Source: Promethearchaeota archaeon (GTDB lineage Archaea; Asgardarchaeota; Lokiarchaeia; Sigyniarchaeales; SOKP01). From it: 64,000 nt of DNA. Positions 2,907 to 11,130 of this stretch are shown in pieces (the first letter of the stretch is position 1; each line of letters starts with the position of its first letter). Below the pieces are notes generated by a model. The model was given only the letters and a program-made list of their open reading frames with translations. It made no database searches and was not told the origin of the DNA. Location of the stretch: positions 1 through 64,000 of the forward strand of contig JAHPZE010000006.1 of the NCBI GenBank assembly GCA_019058365.1, in the 5' to 3' direction. Position numbers and translations under genes: made by a program.

Positions 2907-5900
2907 ATGAGAAATTTATTAAAAACTAAATCATCATCAATAATTTTATTGATGCTATTGAATGCAATTACTGGTTTATATCTCGTTTATTTAAATAATT
3001 CTGATAAATCGGATGCTGTCAATCTTTCTGAAACAATTGCAATATCTCCTATAGATATTTTGACAGCTGCTCAACCAAATCCCCAAAATCAAATATTTGG
3101 AAGTATTGAAAACCGTAATGGTAAAATTTTTACTAACATCACTCATACTGATCAATTTTGCTACATCAATAGGTACCAACCAAGTTTAGATAATCAGCCA
3201 AATTTATTCCTTCAAAATTGGAATATTACTCATGCTAAAATGGTTTTTGAAAATATAACAGCAGTTAATTATACGCGAAATATTGAGACCGAACCAACAG
3301 AATTTATCATGAGTTATTCTGAAACTGATCCAATCTACGTATACCAGAAATTTGCGATTGAAACGGATCAGTATACCAATAATGTAAGCATCTTTATCCA
3401 AGATGTTATTGATGAGGATTATTATTCAGATGAGAATTCATGGGAGGTATCTATAGTAAATTGTTCAAATGACCCTCTTGGTACACCCAACTCAAATCAA
3501 ACGTTAGGTACACTAAAAAAACCTCACCCTATTGACATGGTTGCACACTGGGAAGTTTTTAACTTTAAAGGATCAGACATTGGGCCAATATTCTTAAATA
3601 AATCGAAAACAAATTGGACAACAGTAGATGGAATTATGAAATATTGGTTTGCAATTAAAATTAAAATACCTCCAAATGATTTGCGAACTGGCGGTGGACC
3701 CAAATTCCTTTATTTAAATCCTGACGGCGGTGTCTCTAATGAAATAGGAGAGGGAGAAACATTTTCTCAATCTCCTCAGTTCATAAATTTAAACCACTTT
3801 ACTGAACATGTAGTAGAAAACTCAACATTGCTAGGTAATCATTTTGATGGAAATATCATTTCTTTCAGATATTTCGATGAAGATAGATTTAGGGTCAATA
3901 GTACATCATATCTTCTAGCACAAAGAATTTATTTAACAGTTAGATTTGAAATTGATAATTTAACAAACCCAGAATACACTTGGGATGATTTGAAGTATAT
4001 AAGAATGACAGAACCATTGGAATGGAAAAATATATTAAATAGTATAGTTTTTAGTATGAATTTCTCAGTCGTTTCAAATATCAGTGATAATAATCTAGTT
4101 GATAAAGCAAGAATATCACTCTATAATCCATTTACTTCTAAATTTGATTCAATTGATCGCTCTCCAATAAATCTTACTCATCAATATGAGATTTTACAAT
4201 ATTATGCTGCTATAGATCCGGAAGAAAAACTGTTTTTTATCCAACATATGAACACATCAGTGAATGGGAATAATTCACTGACATTTAGGTTTGAATATGA
4301 TGGATCTATTCTCCTTACTGATCCATTTAATATTTCAATAAATTTAGCTAATATTGAGATTGGAGAAATAGAGACGATAAAAACGATTCAAAAATATGAT
4401 CCAATCGTTCATGATTTACATTATTGCAATAATGTGACTCTATTGAATAGTACTTTTAATACTCCCAATAATGAGATAATTGAATCTCTTAAGGAAAATG
4501 ATGATAAATTTTTGGAAATTCTGGGAGATTCAGGTTCAAATACTACAATTATAGATTTTAAGTTTAATGTATTAACAAATTTAGATAGCTCATTATGGGA
4601 TGTGGATGATCCGATTGAGTGGATATTTAATTTACCTAATCCCAGAATATATCAAATTGATTTTCGAATTAGCTCTAATGTTAGTATTCAAGATTCCTTA
4701 AATCTAACACATGCGATGTTAGAAATATATAATAGTGGAGATTTTGCTCCATTTAATGGAATTGAATGGATTCAATTTTCTGATAATAAAACTTTTGCTG
4801 ATATTGGCGAAAATACTAAAATCCTTCCTTTTGATTCCTACTATTCTTGGTATATAATGCATTTAATTAATGAAAGTGATGGTAATTCCCTTAGAGTAAG
4901 ACTTCGATTTATAGGAAATGGTACGTTTACCCGAATAAATGTCTCTATTGATGAATTTACTTTAAACTTTCATATTCAGAATGCAATTTCTTCAGATATA
5001 ACCTCCAAAATTGGATTTGGATTAAATAGTAACTCATTAAAACCTTCTGACATTCATTTAAAAAATTTTGGTACATATTTATCTGATAATGGATTATGGG
5101 AAATTGACATACATGATGGGCTTCCTATTCAAGGATTTTATTATTTCAATGTAACGTCTATTTGGCCAGAAGTTATATTTGATGTTAGTGGAATGTATAC
5201 AATAGAAAAGCATCAATATCTTGATTGGGATTATAACTTAGATTTTAATCTTCTAAAAATTCTTTGGAATGTAAGTTCTGACATAACTTATTATGAATTT
5301 TATAGTAATTTAGAAAATAGCCAAGGTTTAAAATTTAATGTCCCTTCAGATTGGGAATTAATGGAAATTTATAATTGTTCAGTCTCACCTCCTAATCCTA
5401 ATGGAGAGTGGTATTCAACGACTCAATCTGTTGATCCTTTTAAAATTATAACTATATATAATATTTCAGACGGAATTTGGAAGATTGGAATGAATTCATC
5501 AAAAATTCCTTTGTTATTTAGTGTTAATTCAACCAATGCATATATTGATAAAATGATTAATATTGATATTGATATTCAAGACATCTACGGAGGAGACATA
5601 TATTTTGAAATTTATAACACAGACTCGGAAATTATATATAGTGAAAGTAACAAACTTAATGAAACCGCTTTTGAAAATTCAGTTTCATACAATTGGGATA
5701 TTTTTTCAACCACAAAAATACCAGGAACATATTATTTAAAAGCCTATTGGATCTTATATAACGAGACTCATGCGTTTCTTGCATTAAATACTACAGAAGT
5801 AATTGTATCTAAATATACTGTAAATCTAGAAATTTTAAATATTGCTGAATTCTCTAGGTCTTATCTCTATGGTAGTGCCATTCTAATTGAAGGAAGACTA

Positions 5901-6920
5901 ACTAATAATGATACTGGAACTGTTATTGAAAGAGAACCGATTATTACCGAAATCTATGATAATAATTTAAATTTAATCGAGACCAAAAGTGATATTACTA
6001 ACAATGAAGGAATAATTCAAATTGAATATACTTTACCGACAGGTTATAGCAAAATTTCAGTTAAATTAGTATATAATGCTTCTGATACATATTATTCTTT
6101 TGGGGAGAGTGAACACACTCTTGAAATTAACCTAATTTCTCAAGCAGAATATTATCTTAATATTTTTCTAAACTTTCTACCATACATTGTAGCAGTTTTG
6201 GTAATATCAATAACTACAATTGTTGTAGTTAAGTATAGAAAAAGTAAATTGAGAAAATTTTGGGCTGGAGAGGCAAAGATTTTGGATGATTTATTAAATA
6301 TTTCTTATATAATGATTATACATAAAGATGTTGGTGTTTCAATTTACAATAAGCAAATATCTTTAGAGGGTATTGATTCTGATCTAATATCTGGGTTTTT
6401 ACAAGCAATTTCCCAGTTTAGAAGTGAGTTTAAAAAAGGTACCAGTGATACTAAAGATAAGGGTTTTGAAATGGATTACGGCGACTTTAAAATTGTAATT
6501 GTAGATGGAGATTATGTTCGGGTAGCTTTAATTTTAGATGGTACTCCTTCTGAAAAATTAAAAGAAAGCCAATGGTTATTCACAGAAGGGTTTGAGAGGA
6601 GGTATAGCACATTATTAACAGATTTTGCAGGTGAAATCACTCCATTTAGAGAAGCAGATGATTTAATTGAGAGACATTTCAATGTTAGTCTAGTCTATCC
6701 ACTTCAACTAGGAAAACATTATGGAGTCATTAAAGTAAAGGGTTTAGAGAAAGCTCTTATAGAAGTTGCTGAACAAATTCAGAAAGAGCGTAATATTTTC
6801 TTTGTTTCAAGTCTTTTAAATTTCGCTTTAGCTGGAAGAAAAGCCACAAGGGATGAAATAATAAGTACCATAATAGAGATGAAAAGAAAAGGGCTTATAA
6901 TTCAAGCAGAAGTAGTATAA
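2907..6920 (+). CDS. large membrane protein: glycosylated ectodomain + TM + cytoplasmic longin-like domain + winged helix
   Basis: N-terminal hydrophobic segment; about 1050-aa sequon-rich beta region; TM (PYIVAVLVISITTIVVV-KYRK); IMIIHKDVGVSIY..DSDLISGFLQAISQF..FKIVIVDGDYVRVALIL longin pattern; C-terminal RDEIISTIIEMKRKGLI. Confidence 0.75.
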   Translation: MRNLLKTKSSSIILLMLLNAITGLYLVYLNNSDKSDAVNLSETIAISPIDILTAAQPNPQNQIFGSIENRNGKIFTNITHTDQFCYINRYQPSLDNQPNLFLQNWNITHAKMVFENITAVNYTRNIETEPTEFIMSYSETDPIYVYQKFAIETDQYTNNVSIFIQDVIDEDYYSDENSWEVSIVNCSNDPLGTPNSNQTLGTLKKPHPIDMVAHWEVFNFKGSDIGPIFLNKSKTNWTTVDGIMKYWFAIKIKIPPNDLRTGGGPKFLYLNPDGGVSNEIGEGETFSQSPQFINLNHFTEHVVENSTLLGNHFDGNIISFRYFDEDRFRVNSTSYLLAQRIYLTVRFEIDNLTNPEYTWDDLKYIRMTEPLEWKNILNSIVFSMNFSVVSNISDNNLVDKARISLYNPFTSKFDSIDRSPINLTHQYEILQYYAAIDPEEKLFFIQHMNTSVNGNNSLTFRFEYDGSILLTDPFNISINLANIEIGEIETIKTIQKYDPIVHDLHYCNNVTLLNSTFNTPNNEIIESLKENDDKFLEILGDSGSNTTIIDFKFNVLTNLDSSLWDVDDPIEWIFNLPNPRIYQIDFRISSNVSIQDSLNLTHAMLEIYNSGDFAPFNGIEWIQFSDNKTFADIGENTKILPFDSYYSWYIMHLINESDGNSLRVRLRFIGNGTFTRINVSIDEFTLNFHIQNAISSDITSKIGFGLNSNSLKPSDIHLKNFGTYLSDNGLWEIDIHDGLPIQGFYYFNVTSIWPEVIFDVSGMYTIEKHQYLDWDYNLDFNLLKILWNVSSDITYYEFYSNLENSQGLKFNVPSDWELMEIYNCSVSPPNPNGEWYSTTQSVDPFKIITIYNISDGIWKIGMNSSKIPLLFSVNSTNAYIDKMINIDIDIQDIYGGDIYFEIYNTDSEIIYSESNKLNETAFENSVSYNWDIFSTTKIPGTYYLKAYWILYNETHAFLALNTTEVIVSKYTVNLEILNIAEFSRSYLYGSAILIEGRLTNNDTGTVIEREPIITEIYDNNLNLIETKSDITNNEGIIQIEYTLPTGYSKISVKLVYNASDTYYSFGESEHTLEINLISQAEYYLNIFLNFLPYIVAVLVISITTIVVVKYRKSKLRKFWAGEAKILDDLLNISYIMIIHKDVGVSIYNKQISLEGIDSDLISGFLQAISQFRSEFKKGTSDTKDKGFEMDYGDFKIVIVDGDYVRVALILDGTPSEKLKESQWLFTEGFERRYSTLLTDFAGEITPFREADDLIERHFNVSLVYPLQLGKHYGVIKVKGLEKALIEVAEQIQKERNIFFVSSLLNFALAGRKATRDEIISTIIEMKRKGLIIQAEVV

Positions 6921-8339: not shown

Positions 8340-9167
8340 GTGTTTATGATGGATGATACACCAAGAAAATATATGACAATTGGTGAAATAGATGCAACCG
8401 GGGTAAGGGGTCCTCACGAAAAAGAATTAGCGGATATTAGTAAGGCAAAACATCACTTATTTATTAATTTAGAAATGAATAAGTTAAAAGAGATTGTAGA
8501 GGAAGATATTGGAGGAAAAATAGAAAACATAGGTTTTAATGAAGATTGGACAATAACTATTGAAATGTTTCCAGAAGTAAATATTCACATAGCTTATTCG
8601 TATTTTGGAGATGAATTTGATGATGGAATTGAAGCCGAATTCAAATTTTTCTTTTCAGGCAAGCGAGTTTTTTGGGTACCCGGAGAAGATAGCGCAACTT
8701 TTATCGATATTATTATGGATTTCATCGAAAGAAAAATAAAGGGACAAGAACCTTATGAAAAAAAGTATGAGGAAAAAACAGATTTAATGGAAAAAGTTTT
8801 ACTACAAAGAAGAGAACCATTTAGTTTTCTTAAAGATGTTGATAGAGAGGGTTTAGCTACGTTTCTTGGTGCAAACGTATGGAAAACAGAAAGAGGATGG
8901 AGAATAAAAAAAGAATTTTTCCCAGAAATTTTCTTAGAAATTATTTGGGACGCACAGAATTATTTAGATATCAAATTTTCAGGCACTAACCTCCCAAAAA
9001 ATATAGATAGTTATCATGTGGAATTAGTAGGTATCTTTTTGATCAATCATATACTTAGGTTTATTACCGTAAGTAATATTGATAAAAAGCTTCCTGACAT
9101 TTGCTATATAATGTTCTCACGCTACTATACAAAGAATATTGGAAAATGGAATCATAAAGTAAGATGA
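8340..9167 (+). CDS. tandem DUF3786-like domain protein
   Basis: two internal repeats (WTITIEMFPEVNIHIAY / WRIKKEFFPEIFLEIIW) with GDEF and EDSA motifs. Confidence 0.6.
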   Translation: MFMMDDTPRKYMTIGEIDATGVRGPHEKELADISKAKHHLFINLEMNKLKEIVEEDIGGKIENIGFNEDWTITIEMFPEVNIHIAYSYFGDEFDDGIEAEFKFFFSGKRVFWVPGEDSATFIDIIMDFIERKIKGQEPYEKKYEEKTDLMEKVLLQRREPFSFLKDVDREGLATFLGANVWKTERGWRIKKEFFPEIFLEIIWDAQNYLDIKFSGTNLPKNIDSYHVELVGIFLINHILRFITVSNIDKKLPDICYIMFSRYYTKNIGKWNHKVR

Positions 9168-9198
9168 ATCTAAAAAAAGATATGATTGAAAAAATAAA

Positions 9199-9762
9199 TT
9201 AAATAGCAGTCCAAAGTATTGATCTTCCTTTTTTAGCCGCTCGTTTAATTATTTTAGAATTTTCTAAATCACTCATTACTTTCCAAATTTGTGAATTACT
9301 TAGTTTAAAGTACCTTCTTAATTCCGGCGTCGTCATTTGAGTACCACTCAATAAATTTGGGATTATTCTTATTATTTCTTCAATAGTATCCTCGTCAGAG
9401 TCTACAGTAGTTTTTTCTTCATCATCTTCATCATTTGATTCCATTTCCGTGATTATACGTGAAGCAATTTTATTTAACTGATTAATATTGTTATCCACAT
9501 TCTGAGGCTTCATAAAAAGACAACAAAGTTCTAAATCTCTTGGAAAAGCAACAATATAAAATTCATCATATAGGATTGCTCGTGGTTTTTTAACAGAATT
9601 ATTTCCACCACGAAAAGCTAAATAAAAATTCATAGCAAAATCATTTAAATTTACACTATTATTTATTTTTGAAAATTCTTTTTTCCATTTAAGAAAGGGA
9701 CCATCTATCATATCGAAACCGATTAAGGCGGCTCCAAACATTTCACTTTCGGTAAAATTCAA
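9199..9762 (-). CDS. longin/uDENN-like domain fused to a C-terminal winged-helix HTH
   Basis: N-terminal LIGFDMIDGP (FDxxxGP uDENN-type strand-turn), acidic linker, MTTPELRRYFKLSNSQIWKVMSDLENSKII wHTH; start overlaps the GTPase stop. Confidence 0.6.
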   Translation of the reverse strand: MNFTESEMFGAALIGFDMIDGPFLKWKKEFSKINNSVNLNDFAMNFYLAFRGGNNSVKKPRAILYDEFYIVAFPRDLELCCLFMKPQNVDNNINQLNKIASRIITEMESNDEDDEEKTTVDSDEDTIEEIIRIIPNLLSGTQMTTPELRRYFKLSNSQIWKVMSDLENSKIIKRAAKKGRSILWTAI

Positions 9763-10295
9763 TCTTTTAATCTCCTCCTAATTGCTATTTTATCTAATTC
9801 TTTTTTAATTATATTCATCAATTTAAACCGTTCTGAAGGATTAATAGCAGTTAATCCATAAGTTTTGCAATGAAGTACATCCTCAACACGTTTTACATCC
9901 ATTCGCCCATCATTTTTTACCAGATCTTGCTTATTTGCAATCGCAACAATAGGACAATCCTTTCCTACGAATTTACAAGCATAGTTGATAAGTTCCCTTG
10001 AACTTAAAACATTTCGAGGAGTTGAGTCAGTCACTATGAAAATAATATCTGAACCTAAAAGGTAATCTTTTGAATATGCCCTAAGATAACCGCTTTGACC
10101 TGCCAGATCCCAAACTCTCAAAAAATAATCTTCAAACTTAACTGTTTTGAGATCTAGTCCATGAGTTGGAATGTATAATCGATCTATCGTCTGTTCAGAC
10201 AGTAGTTTTAACATTGTAGTTTTCCCTACAGCTGGAGCTCCAATGAACGTAATTTTTACAAGCCGACTTATTTCAGAACTCAACAAAAAAAACAC
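9759..10295 (-). CDS. small GTPase (Ras superfamily, Arf/Rab-like)
   Basis: G1 GAPAVGKTT, G2 YIPT, G3 WDLAGQ, G4 NKQD, G5 TAI. Confidence 0.93.
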   Translation of the reverse strand: MFFLLSSEISRLVKITFIGAPAVGKTTMLKLLSEQTIDRLYIPTHGLDLKTVKFEDYFLRVWDLAGQSGYLRAYSKDYLLGSDIIFIVTDSTPRNVLSSRELINYACKFVGKDCPIVAIANKQDLVKNDGRMDVKRVEDVLHCKTYGLTAINPSERFKLMNIIKKELDKIAIRRRLKD

Positions 10296-10404
10296 AACAC
10301 AACAAAAAAAATAAGATGATTATTTAAGAAAGAATGAAATGAAAATATGAATCTGGATAATATCTATGTATTATAAAAAAAATATAGTATTTTAAAATGA
10401 GAGG

Positions 10405-11130
10405 TTATTTACTTTTTAAAAGGAGCTTTTTCATCCATTTGGGTAGCAAGAATCCTCCATACCAACAAATCGCACTCAATATTAAGATTAATCTAATAAT
10501 AATTATCGTTGCTTCACTAAAAGGTACAGACGCGTCTAACAATGCTCCAACTGAAAAAGTAATATAAGCGATTATTAATAATTTCCCTTTGAGTTTTACT
10601 TCTGGATCTTCAGATTTTAGAGAAAGATTGGCAAATAAAAATCCTGTAATGACGACAATCAAAAGAAATATTACTAAAAATACCATTATAAAAGACTTAT
10701 AATTTACATCTACAGGACCATTCAAGTTTCCTATTAAACTTTGATTTATAAATAGAAAGGTGAAAAATAGTATCTCAAAGATGGTTCCAATTATGACAAA
10801 CGTTGAAAGAATTATCTTACGTTTCTCAGAATACAAGAATTCTGTGAAAGCTAATAACCAAAAAACTATCGCTAAAGGGATAAAAAGATTTCCTATTAGA
10901 AAATATACCCCTTCAGGAATTCCAACGCCATTAATTAATGCTATCAAAAAGGAGAGGCTAGAGGGCCACCATGGTTCAGATATAAAAATCCAGGTTGCTC
11001 CGACTAATAAATAAATCCTTTCTTTATATTTAAAGAATCTTGAGAGTATTATAAAACCTATTAATAAAGAGATCGCTACAAAGATGAGAGAAAATACTCC
11101 ATTTACAGTATCTAAAAGACTTAATGACAT
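10405..11130 (-). CDS. polytopic (about 7 TM) membrane protein of unknown function
   Basis: 7-8 hydrophobic segments, SEPWWPS motif, no catalytic motif seen. Confidence 0.8.
   Translation of the reverse strand: MSLSLLDTVNGVFSLIFVAISLLIGFIILSRFFKYKERIYLLVGATWIFISEPWWPSSLSFLIALINGVGIPEGVYFLIGNLFIPLAIVFWLLAFTEFLYSEKRKIILSTFVIIGTIFEILFFTFLFINQSLIGNLNGPVDVNYKSFIMVFLVIFLLIVVITGFLFANLSLKSEDPEVKLKGKLLIIAYITFSVGALLDASVPFSEATIIIIRLILILSAICWYGGFLLPKWMKKLLLKSK

Follow-up and report, generated by a model that had tools for sequence, protein, structure and literature searches.

Which archaeal GTPases do the longin-like proteins of Asgard archaea serve, and could such a protein carry the state of its GTPase on to DNA? 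Both questions are raised by a pair of overlapping genes on the minus strand of a 64,000-nucleotide (nt) stretch of DNA, hereafter the window, from a Promethearchaeota archaeon of the Lokiarchaeia (GenBank assembly GCA_019058365.1, contig JAHPZE010000006.1, positions 1 to 64,000). The upstream gene (9759..10295) encodes an Arf-like small GTPase, and the downstream gene (9199..9762), here called the partner, encodes a longin-like domain followed by an acidic linker and a winged helix-turn-helix (wHTH) domain. The best explanation of the evidence set out below is that the two genes form a translationally coupled two-gene operon for an Arf-family-like small GTPase and its own regulator or effector. 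We put the probability of this overall reading, an operon of a GTPase and a longin/wHTH regulator that carries a glycine-proline (GP) motif, at roughly 0.45.

Layout and conservation of the gene pair

In the list of open reading frames (ORFs), the GTPase has 178 amino acids (aa) and a GTG start at 10295, and the partner has 187 aa and a TTG start. The plus strand reads tcaa at 9759-9762; because the minus strand thus reads TTGA (9759..9762), the partner TTG start and the GTPase TGA stop have four bases in common. Among 60 related loci, the homologous codon of the partner is ATG in 31 and TTG in 29, and judged from the sequence the TTG start is correctly placed and no artefact of the ORF caller. 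In 58 of the 60 loci the two frames overlap; the overlap is 4 nt long in 31 loci, 11 nt in 21, 14 nt in three and 1 nt in three, and the remaining two loci have a gap of 1-2 nt between the frames. In the window, a Shine-Dalgarno-like AGGAGGAG (9772..9779, minus strand) lies within the 3' end of the GTPase gene, 9 nt ahead of the partner start. Of the 60 related loci, 48 have GGAGG within 20 nt 5' of the partner start, 11 have a 4-mer of it there and one has neither. In relatives, the GTPase start is kept at codon 10286..10284, for which the window has TTG and 50 of 59 relatives have ATG; because this is the conserved start, the GTPase is probably 175 rather than 178 aa long.

Pfam Arf matches the GTPase at an E-value of 4.6e-17 (62.5 bits against a cut-off of 22.3). 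Roc and Ras match too, Gtr1_RagA stays at 19.6 bits, under its cut-off of 22, and MglA is absent among the family matches listed, the best of which are Arf, Roc and Ras. The closest solved structure is Arl3 (3.6e-14), and when a family profile of 33 orthologues was compared with the PDB, 58 of the best 60 matches bore Arf or Arl names, the two others being a 'GTP-binding protein' (8oun) and Rab6. The P-loop GxPxVGKT, the switch I PT, the DxxG(Q) and the NKQD motifs are invariant or nearly so in the 33 sequences, in which the catalytic glutamine Q67 is also nearly invariant and kept by most members. Because motifs G1 to G5 are all conserved, the GTPase is, by its sequence, an intact switch. About 10 residues precede β1 when counted from the conserved start, and they have a helical hydrophobic moment of 0.73 in a calculation from sequence alone; an N-terminal amphipathic helix, released by the interswitch toggle, is given as a hallmark of the Arf family in the accessible part of the Vargova preprint. 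A search for longer proteins that contain the GTPase found two longin-GTPase fusions of 311-312 aa (P0149 and P0150). Each joins an N-terminal longin without the GP motif to an Arf-like GTPase, at 35-36% identity to the window GTPase.

The GTPase gene lies directly 5' of the partner gene on the genome contigs of all 60 related loci, which are collinear across further genes as well, namely a DUF3786-like gene (56 of 60), DUF2070 (53 of 60) and an RsmB-like gene (47 of 60). At greater distance, 13 loci match the N-terminal domain of the partner, and nine of these (L091 and L098-L105) have a GTPase gene directly 5' of it. The distant loci with the pair include further families of the class and three more families of the phylum, at partner identities of 23-41%, and the pair is kept at loci that have lost the other neighbours (L051, L056 and L098-L105). 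The window's own genome has a single copy of the partner gene. It is present in 122 of the 134 genomes of its own family (f1) and, in further families of the class, in 1 of 1 (f2), 13 of 14 (f3), 4 of 4 (f4), 3 of 3 (f5), 2 of 2 (f6) and 2 of 2 (f7); complete genomes of related families (G135, G138 and G143) also carry the pair. Across the phylum, 180 of 400 genomes scanned match the partner at E ≤ 0.001, the weakest of these matches being probably HTH-only, as in L096 and L097. The trees of the GTPase and the partner have 29 of 61 splits in common, compared with a mean of 0.19 and a maximum of 2 after label shuffling. Identity to the window GTPase and identity to the window partner correlate at r = 0.92 over 64 loci, which is expected because the genes are linked. 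Taken together, three claims of the original prediction are borne out: that the GTPase TGA overlaps the partner TTG by 4 bp, that the upstream gene encodes a small GTPase, which the Pfam, Arl3, motif and PDB profile results further identify as Arf-like, and that the pairing, on the proposed synteny check across Asgard genomes, is kept in close and distant relatives.

The flanks of some of these loci hold further features. In two other Asgard families (L091 and L092), the partner homologue is longin-only (112-131 aa) and adjoins a divergent gene for a PF0610-like wHTH with a zinc ribbon (features at L091:2391-2732, plus strand, L091:2743-3126, minus strand, and L092:994-1317, minus strand), and L091 additionally holds a Roadblock/LC7 gene; an arrangement of neighbouring genes like this one may be the origin of the longin-wHTH fusion. 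Next to the pair in L102, a 257-aa ORF (L102:1116-1889, plus strand) matches V4R above cut-off (1.7e-08) and Longin weakly (E 0.016), and these sequence matches mark it as a TRAPP-like combination of longin and V4R. A second small longin-like ORF (L093:2071-2502, plus strand; weak Intu_longin_1, E 0.13) lies by a longin-only homologue that has no GTPase neighbour. One related locus (L028, DATKTW010000082.1) comes from a record titled Nanopelagicaceae bacterium, yet its 20.9-kb contig has the Promethearchaeota archaeal gene order, and this contig is probably mis-binned or mislabelled.

Domains of the partner protein

The partner has 494 relatives at E ≤ 1e-3, and the 120 of them that were listed are 168-189 aa long, 74-100% identical and named at their source as nothing beyond 'hypothetical' or 'uncharacterized'. 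Among 1.84 billion cluster representatives, only 28 belong to its family. The window's partner protein matched no Pfam family. Its AlphaFold2 (AF2) model, built from 32 sequences, has a mean predicted local distance difference test (pLDDT) score of 73.4, and places a longin/roadblock-fold domain at residues 1 to ~113 (9424..9762, minus strand). Specifically, strands 8-17 and 21-29, helix 39-51, strands 61-64, 69-75 and 78-84, and helix 90-113 follow the longin order β-β-α-β-β-β-α without an N-terminal helix, at block-mean pLDDT values of 59-81. The best structural matches of this domain are GTPase-binding proteins of longin or roadblock fold and fall at Z 9.2-10.0 over 98-110 residues, for a model that is predicted and not solved: TRAPPII chain 7u05_D (Z 10.0), the Lokiarchaeal longin 8yqg_A (Z 9.8), MglB (Z 9.4, with a root-mean-square deviation (rmsd) of 3.6 over 105 aligned residues, and Z 9.4-9.5 across both comparisons that were made), GATOR1 chain 7t3b_C (Z 9.3) and TRAPP chain 3cue_A (Z 9.2). 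In Foldseek, the sole match of the model at E ≤ 0.001 is a Ragulator roadblock chain. On the model, the fold class is secure as longin/roadblock, whereas the subfamily is not. Membership in the longins of GTPase-activating proteins (GAPs) was rejected at the level of profiles, with no Pfam longin match and an Atlas score of 0.79, which is chance level. A search for longer proteins that contain the partner found no fused form among 1052 candidates at E ≤ 0.001, which is weak evidence.

Within this domain, an F16-D17-x3-G21-P22 motif (9697..9717, minus strand) lies at the end of the β1-β2 loop or the start of β2, with G21-P22 at the opening of strand β2 (residues 21-29) in the AF2 model. All four named residues are invariant in the 32 aligned members, and they are present in 140, 142, 144 and 143, respectively, of 145 family sequences. 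According to the accessible text of PMC12290439 (2025), a 'GP motif' at the end of the β1-β2 loop or the start of β2 is found in C9orf72 (G38-P39, near the essential W33-D34), SMCR8 (G68-P69), FLCN and NPRL2, and is absent from adaptin, TRAPP and DENND longins; GAP but not non-GAP longins are described as carrying it. The same text states that longin domains mostly act in guanine-nucleotide exchange factors (GEFs), reports that some Asgard longins have the motif and poses the question whether their partners are ArfR or Rag GTPases. The GP position of the partner agrees with the motif as defined there, and, by published residue numbers, its F-D-x3-G-P spacing equals the W-D-x3-G-P of C9orf72. 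In the portion of PMC8213707 available, ARF1 sits on two longins, R147 of SMCR8 is the finger, and the W33G/D34K change in C9orf72 abolishes GAP activity. Two peptide words did not occur in the accessible supplement files of PMC12290439 outside the sequence set Data S1.

Behind the longin-like domain, residues ~108-123 (9394..9441, minus strand) form an acidic linker, which has a median net charge of -6 in 137 members and is modelled as disordered (pLDDT below 50 at residues 110-123). The C-terminal residues 124-187 (9202..9393, minus strand) are modelled as helix 124-138, strand 142-144, helices 145-152 and 156-168, and strands 172-178 and 181-186, and this helix-strand-helix-helix-strand-strand topology, with block-mean pLDDT values of 84-91 at residues 131-187, is that of a winged HTH. 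Structurally, it is close to PH1932 (Z 10.1, rmsd 2.3, 62 aligned) and the NolR-DNA complex (Z 10.0), and its neighbours also include winged helices of ESCRT-II, cullin and Rpa2 (Z 8.1-8.8). Compared with the PDB, the family profile matches an Lrs14-like protein (0.0015), PH0140 (0.0018) and AdcR (0.0021). The window partner itself matches NCBIfam Sta1 alone (E 0.008, 16.2 bits against a cut-off of 80), and the divergent orthologues P0128, P0130 and P0133 exceed the Pfam cut-offs of HTH_DeoR, HTH_11, HTH_5 and HTH_24. The domain is basic, with a median net charge of +6 in the 137 members, and both model and profiles support a transcription-factor-type wHTH. In two homologues from families f28 and f29, P0146 (L101:1343-1933, minus strand) and P0141 (L102:2047-2616, minus strand), the longin and the GTPase neighbour are kept and the C-terminus is not a wHTH; weak matches to a helix-hairpin-helix (HhH) region of PolX (E 0.39) and to HhH clusters in the Atlas (0.76-0.77) suggest, as a lead only, that another nucleic-acid-binding module may have replaced it.

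The domain plan read from the sequence in the original prediction therefore stands. The longin-like N-terminal domain agrees with the modelled strand and helix order and with Z scores of 9-10 to longin/roadblock structures, and the 'uDENN-like' reading of the FDxxxGP motif is reasonable because the position and spacing of the motif equal those of C9orf72, at the published GP-motif site of the FLCN, SMCR8, C9orf72 and NPRL2 longins. The acidic linker is recovered in the charge counts and the modelled disorder, and the HTH-wing in the modelled topology, the PH1932 and NolR matches and the matches to DNA-binding HTH profiles.

Upstream element, RNA and neighbouring genes

The most conserved block of the region between the GTPase gene and its upstream neighbour is an element at 10344..10374 (minus strand), in which alignment shows an imperfect palindrome (10357-10374) followed by the box CCAGATTCATATT (10344-10356). 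The palindrome has the consensus ATAATAY-N4-ATATTAT, and the window copy agrees with it at 13 of 14 positions. In 58 loci (439,546 nt) there are 94 sites with at least 12 of the 14 positions, of which 48 sit 50-110 nt 5' of the GTPase gene against 0.76 expected, and 40 of the 58 loci have a palindrome site in this interval. The extended motif occurs in the 4.74-Mb genome here and at one other, looser site (C39:5288), and a similar palindrome site is found in L098 and L103, which belong to other families, and not in L091 or L101. On sequence grounds, palindrome and box are a candidate operator or promoter element, and a dimeric wHTH protein made from the operon would be a natural candidate to bind the palindrome. 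Covariation between the recognition helix and the upstream motif was not informative, because the recognition helix is nearly invariant across the motif variants. A second conserved block, TTCTTTCTTAAATAAT (10319..10334, minus strand), with a column identity of 0.8-0.9 in 59 aligned upstream regions, is possibly the TATA box and transcription factor B recognition element (TATA/BRE) region. A promoter scan stayed at chance (8 sites against 7.3 expected) with a bacterial model that is not applicable to archaea, and no terminator-like site was found.

Two metatranscriptome runs hold contigs that are 85-99% like this part of the window, and their cover is confined to 9209-10275. Run X19 covers 9211-9654 and 9704-10275, and run X20 covers 9209-9400, 9389-9559, 9675-9738 and 9727-10100. 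Of these, 9704-10275 and 9727-10100 span the gene junction, with 55 and 32 nt, respectively, on the partner side, and are consistent with a bicistronic RNA. Neither run gave cover at 9100-9191 or 10296-10450, although absent contig cover proves nothing.

Two neighbouring genes lie close to the pair. The product of the plus-strand gene 2907..6920 is 1337 aa long: a hydrophobic segment at the N-terminus is followed by a long body rich in Asn and Thr, a second, late hydrophobic segment and a domain at the C-terminus. The gene is found near the pair in 22 of 60 loci within flanks of at most 4 kb. A model of its last 225 residues (6243..6917, plus strand) has the order α-β-β-α-β-β-β-α and matches synbindin (Z 12.1, rmsd 2.9, 122 aligned), Sec22 (Z 11.0) and SRX (Z 9.7). 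By this model the tail is a true longin, and the gene would encode a giant surface protein whose longin tail lies in the cytoplasm. Sequence homology of tail and partner was rejected (BLASTP E 2.3, hhalign probability 0.15%), and the tail has no GP motif. The wHTH proposed for tail residues 148-225 is unconfirmed, with a pLDDT below 50 and no Pfam or PDB profile match. The link that the original prediction drew between tail and partner by their domain logic, with the suggestion that the two longins might heterodimerise, is weak. The 275-aa ORF 8340..9167 (plus strand; weak DUF3786, E 0.028) is convergent to the partner gene and lies beside the pair in 56 of 60 loci.

Proposed mechanism and its alternatives

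We propose that the longin domain of the partner forms a dimeric platform. Its [F]D-x3-GP turn would point towards the GTPase switch regions and would let the domain read or change the nucleotide state. A GAP-like role appears likelier than a GEF role, with a catalytic arginine not secured. The acidic linker would tether the basic, transcription-factor-type wHTH, which would bind DNA, most likely at the palindrome ~70-90 nt 5' of the operon's own start codon, and this would link transcription to the GTPase cycle. The steps of this scheme differ in strength. That GTPase and partner bind each other physically is quite probable, and that the wHTH binds DNA is about an even bet. A GAP-like action of the partner is less likely than not, and control of DNA binding by the nucleotide state is rather doubtful. 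The complete direct switch from GTPase to DNA, in which the Arf-like GTPase, via the GP longin, would gate a transcription factor on the palindrome of its own promoter and perhaps elsewhere, is unlikely as a whole.

Among known systems, the C9orf72-SMCR8 complex (CSW complex), a longin-DENN GAP for ARF1, likewise has an Arf-family client, and, by the published residues, [W/F]-D-x3-G-P stands at the β1-β2 turn in both, as W33-D34/G38-P39 in the C9orf72 longin and F16-D17/G21-P22 in the partner. Unlike that complex, the window pair has no DENN or d-DENN part and no WDR41, the partner adds a wHTH and has no secured equivalent of SMCR8 R147, and it is probably a homodimer rather than a heterodimer. 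The closest match in plan is NPRL2-NPRL3 of GATOR1/SEACIT. In the accessible parts of PMC3521125 and PMC3747258, the Npr2/Npr3 plan is given as an N-terminal u-DENN/longin, u-DENN being the name used by Zhang 2012, followed by two or three tandem wHTH domains. The partner, as modelled, is similarly an N-terminal longin followed by a wHTH, alike in plan and not in family, and NPRL2, like the partner, counts among the GP-motif longins in the available text of PMC12290439. Unlike NPRL2 and NPRL3, the partner has 187 aa, a single transcription-factor-type wHTH, neither repeats nor the 'NPRL2-specific C-terminal domain', no Pfam NPR2 match and an Arf-like instead of a Rag client.

Within archaea, the pair resembles MglA-MglB and the archaeal GTPase/roadblock gene pairs in that a small GTPase gene stands beside a gene for a regulator of the roadblock/longin superfamily, and MglB is among the best structural matches. 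Unlike MglB, the modelled partner has no roadblock N-terminal helix, follows the longin order and adds a wHTH, and unlike MglA the window GTPase is Arf-like; membership in the MglA-MglB system was rejected on the absence of the N-terminal helix from the partner model and of MglA from the GTPase matches listed. The partner has its GP motif at the same structural position as the Asgard 'FLCN/SMCR8-type' GP longins (Traffic 2025, PMC12290439), which are described, in the text available, with a conserved arginine finger and as notable in Heimdallarchaeia. Set against that description, the partner family has its centre in a single Lokiarchaeia-like class, lacks an invariant arginine, carries a fused wHTH and has an identified GTPase neighbour. 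Liu et al. (bioRxiv 10.1101/2020.10.19.343400) report, in the part accessible, NPRL2-like families in most Thor and few Loki metagenome-assembled genomes, and find genes of eukaryotic signature proteins mostly in no conserved neighbourhood, unlike the partner gene, which overlaps its GTPase gene. The available portion of Tran et al. has the GTPase genes of MK-D1 generally outside operons with roadblock or longin genes. The longin-wHTH plan and Asgard NPRL2-like longins are thus already known, and the window pair is a variant thereof; in the literature searched we found no description of an Arf-like GTPase gene overlapping a GP-longin-wHTH gene, which is not proof that none is in print.

The partner could be a regulator of the GTPase with no output to DNA, its longin serving as GAP, GEF or platform and its wHTH serving for dimerisation or protein binding, as in the C-terminal wHTH repeats of NPRL2/NPRL3 and in ESCRT-II winged helices; it would then be a miniature NPRL2-like regulator at the membrane or in a complex. 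This is somewhat unlikely, though a serious prospect. The Npr2/Npr3 plan of longin plus wHTH (PMC3521125, PMC3747258) and the Asgard NPRL2-like longins (bioRxiv 10.1101/2020.10.19.343400) speak for it as far as these sources are accessible, as do the ESCRT-II, cullin and Rpa2 neighbours of the wHTH. In Foldseek, the model in full length also aligns over ~195 columns with chains of the GATOR1 complex that have 363-370 residues, at TM scores of 0.34-0.36 and an rmsd of ~16-17, and the top Atlas cluster has NPR2 in 19% of its members, at the chance-level score of 0.79. The wHTH, however, is one domain where Npr2/3 have tandem repeats, by sequence it is related to DNA-binding regulators of prokaryotes and archaea (Lrs14-like, Lrp-type, MarR/AdcR and ArsR), its divergent orthologues exceed DNA-binding HTH cut-offs in Pfam, and it is basic, with a palindrome at a specific position 5' of the operon.

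Two further readings keep less of the scheme. If the partner were a longin of GEF or platform type or an effector rather than a GAP, the direction of regulation would change and the pairing would stay, with nucleotide exchange as by the TRAPP, Mon1-Ccz1 and DENN longins or binding of the GTP form as by SRX with SR-beta. The lack of an invariant arginine in the partner, the TRAPP longins among the top structural ties (Z 9.2-10.0) and the predominance of GEFs among longin proteins in the accessible text of PMC12290439 favour such a role, but according to the same text TRAPP, adaptin and DENND longins are without the GP motif, and the catalytic glutamine is kept in most GTPase members, as expected of a GTPase served by a GAP; we regard this reading as quite improbable. 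Still less probable is co-expression without contact, in which the partner would be an autoregulatory transcription factor whose N-terminal domain senses something else, such as a small molecule or another protein, and the GTPase gene would simply be transcribed along with it. The distant longin-only homologues without a GTPase neighbour are in keeping with it, and longin/roadblock-like folds also serve non-GTPase interactions, as stated in the available part of PMC10933270. Against it stand the frames that overlap in 58 of 60 loci, the persistence of the pair after the loss of its other neighbours (L051, L056 and L098-L105), the longin fusions in the same GTPase clade, and an invariant motif at the C9orf72 position that, in the accessible parts of PMC12290439 and PMC8213707, contacts ARF1.

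Several observations weigh against the preferred reading, a GTPase operon with its own longin/wHTH regulator. The roadblock, TRAPP and GAP-longin fold scores of the partner lie within 1 Z unit, and because they tie, the assignment to the GAP type rests on a single short motif; neither the window partner nor the 32 members match Pfam NPR2, Folliculin or C9orf72-like at E ≤ 10. No arginine or other basic residue is invariant in the 145 partner sequences. Position 61, the best candidate for an arginine finger, is R in 132 and K in 6 of them and L, Q or M in the divergent P0121, P0125, L104, P0141 and P0146, and K59 and R51 are not invariant either. The occurrence of the pair in 60 of 60 loci overstates selection on it because the whole neighbourhood of the close relatives is collinear, and four of the 13 distant loci (L092-L095) have a longin-only homologue (ORFs of 112-150 aa) with no adjacent GTPase gene. 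To our knowledge, the wHTH domains of eukaryotic NPRL2/3 are not known transcription factors, and the partner wHTH might just as well bind proteins. The palindrome is AT-rich, with 53 sites of at least 13/14 in the 4.74-Mb genome of 29.5% GC, and its counts are not independent because the 58 promoters are orthologous; the upstream element could be a basal promoter or a site of another factor. As for the RNA, the contigs come from relatives, assembled contigs are no proof of a single transcript, and carry-over of DNA is possible.

With these points taken into account, the operon of an Arf-like GTPase and its own longin/wHTH regulator remains the best explanation, and the pair is a small, highly conserved candidate answer to the question of which archaeal GTPases the Asgard GP longins serve. 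Eukaryotic longin GAP complexes, such as C9orf72-SMCR8, FLCN-FNIP and GATOR1, are large, and it is difficult to capture them together with their GTPases. Here, a GTPase of 175 aa and a partner of 187 aa, from overlapping genes that are single-copy and nearly universal in one Asgard family, offer a matched test pair. If the regulator reading alone holds, the pair adds one more Asgard GTPase and longin of an already predicted kind. If the direct switch were true, a small GTPase would directly control archaeal transcription, which would be unusual, a longin GAP with its client bound would have its simplest living model in the 187-aa partner, and the eukaryotic NPRL2/NPRL3 plan of longin plus wHTH would descend from archaeal GTPase-controlled transcription factors.

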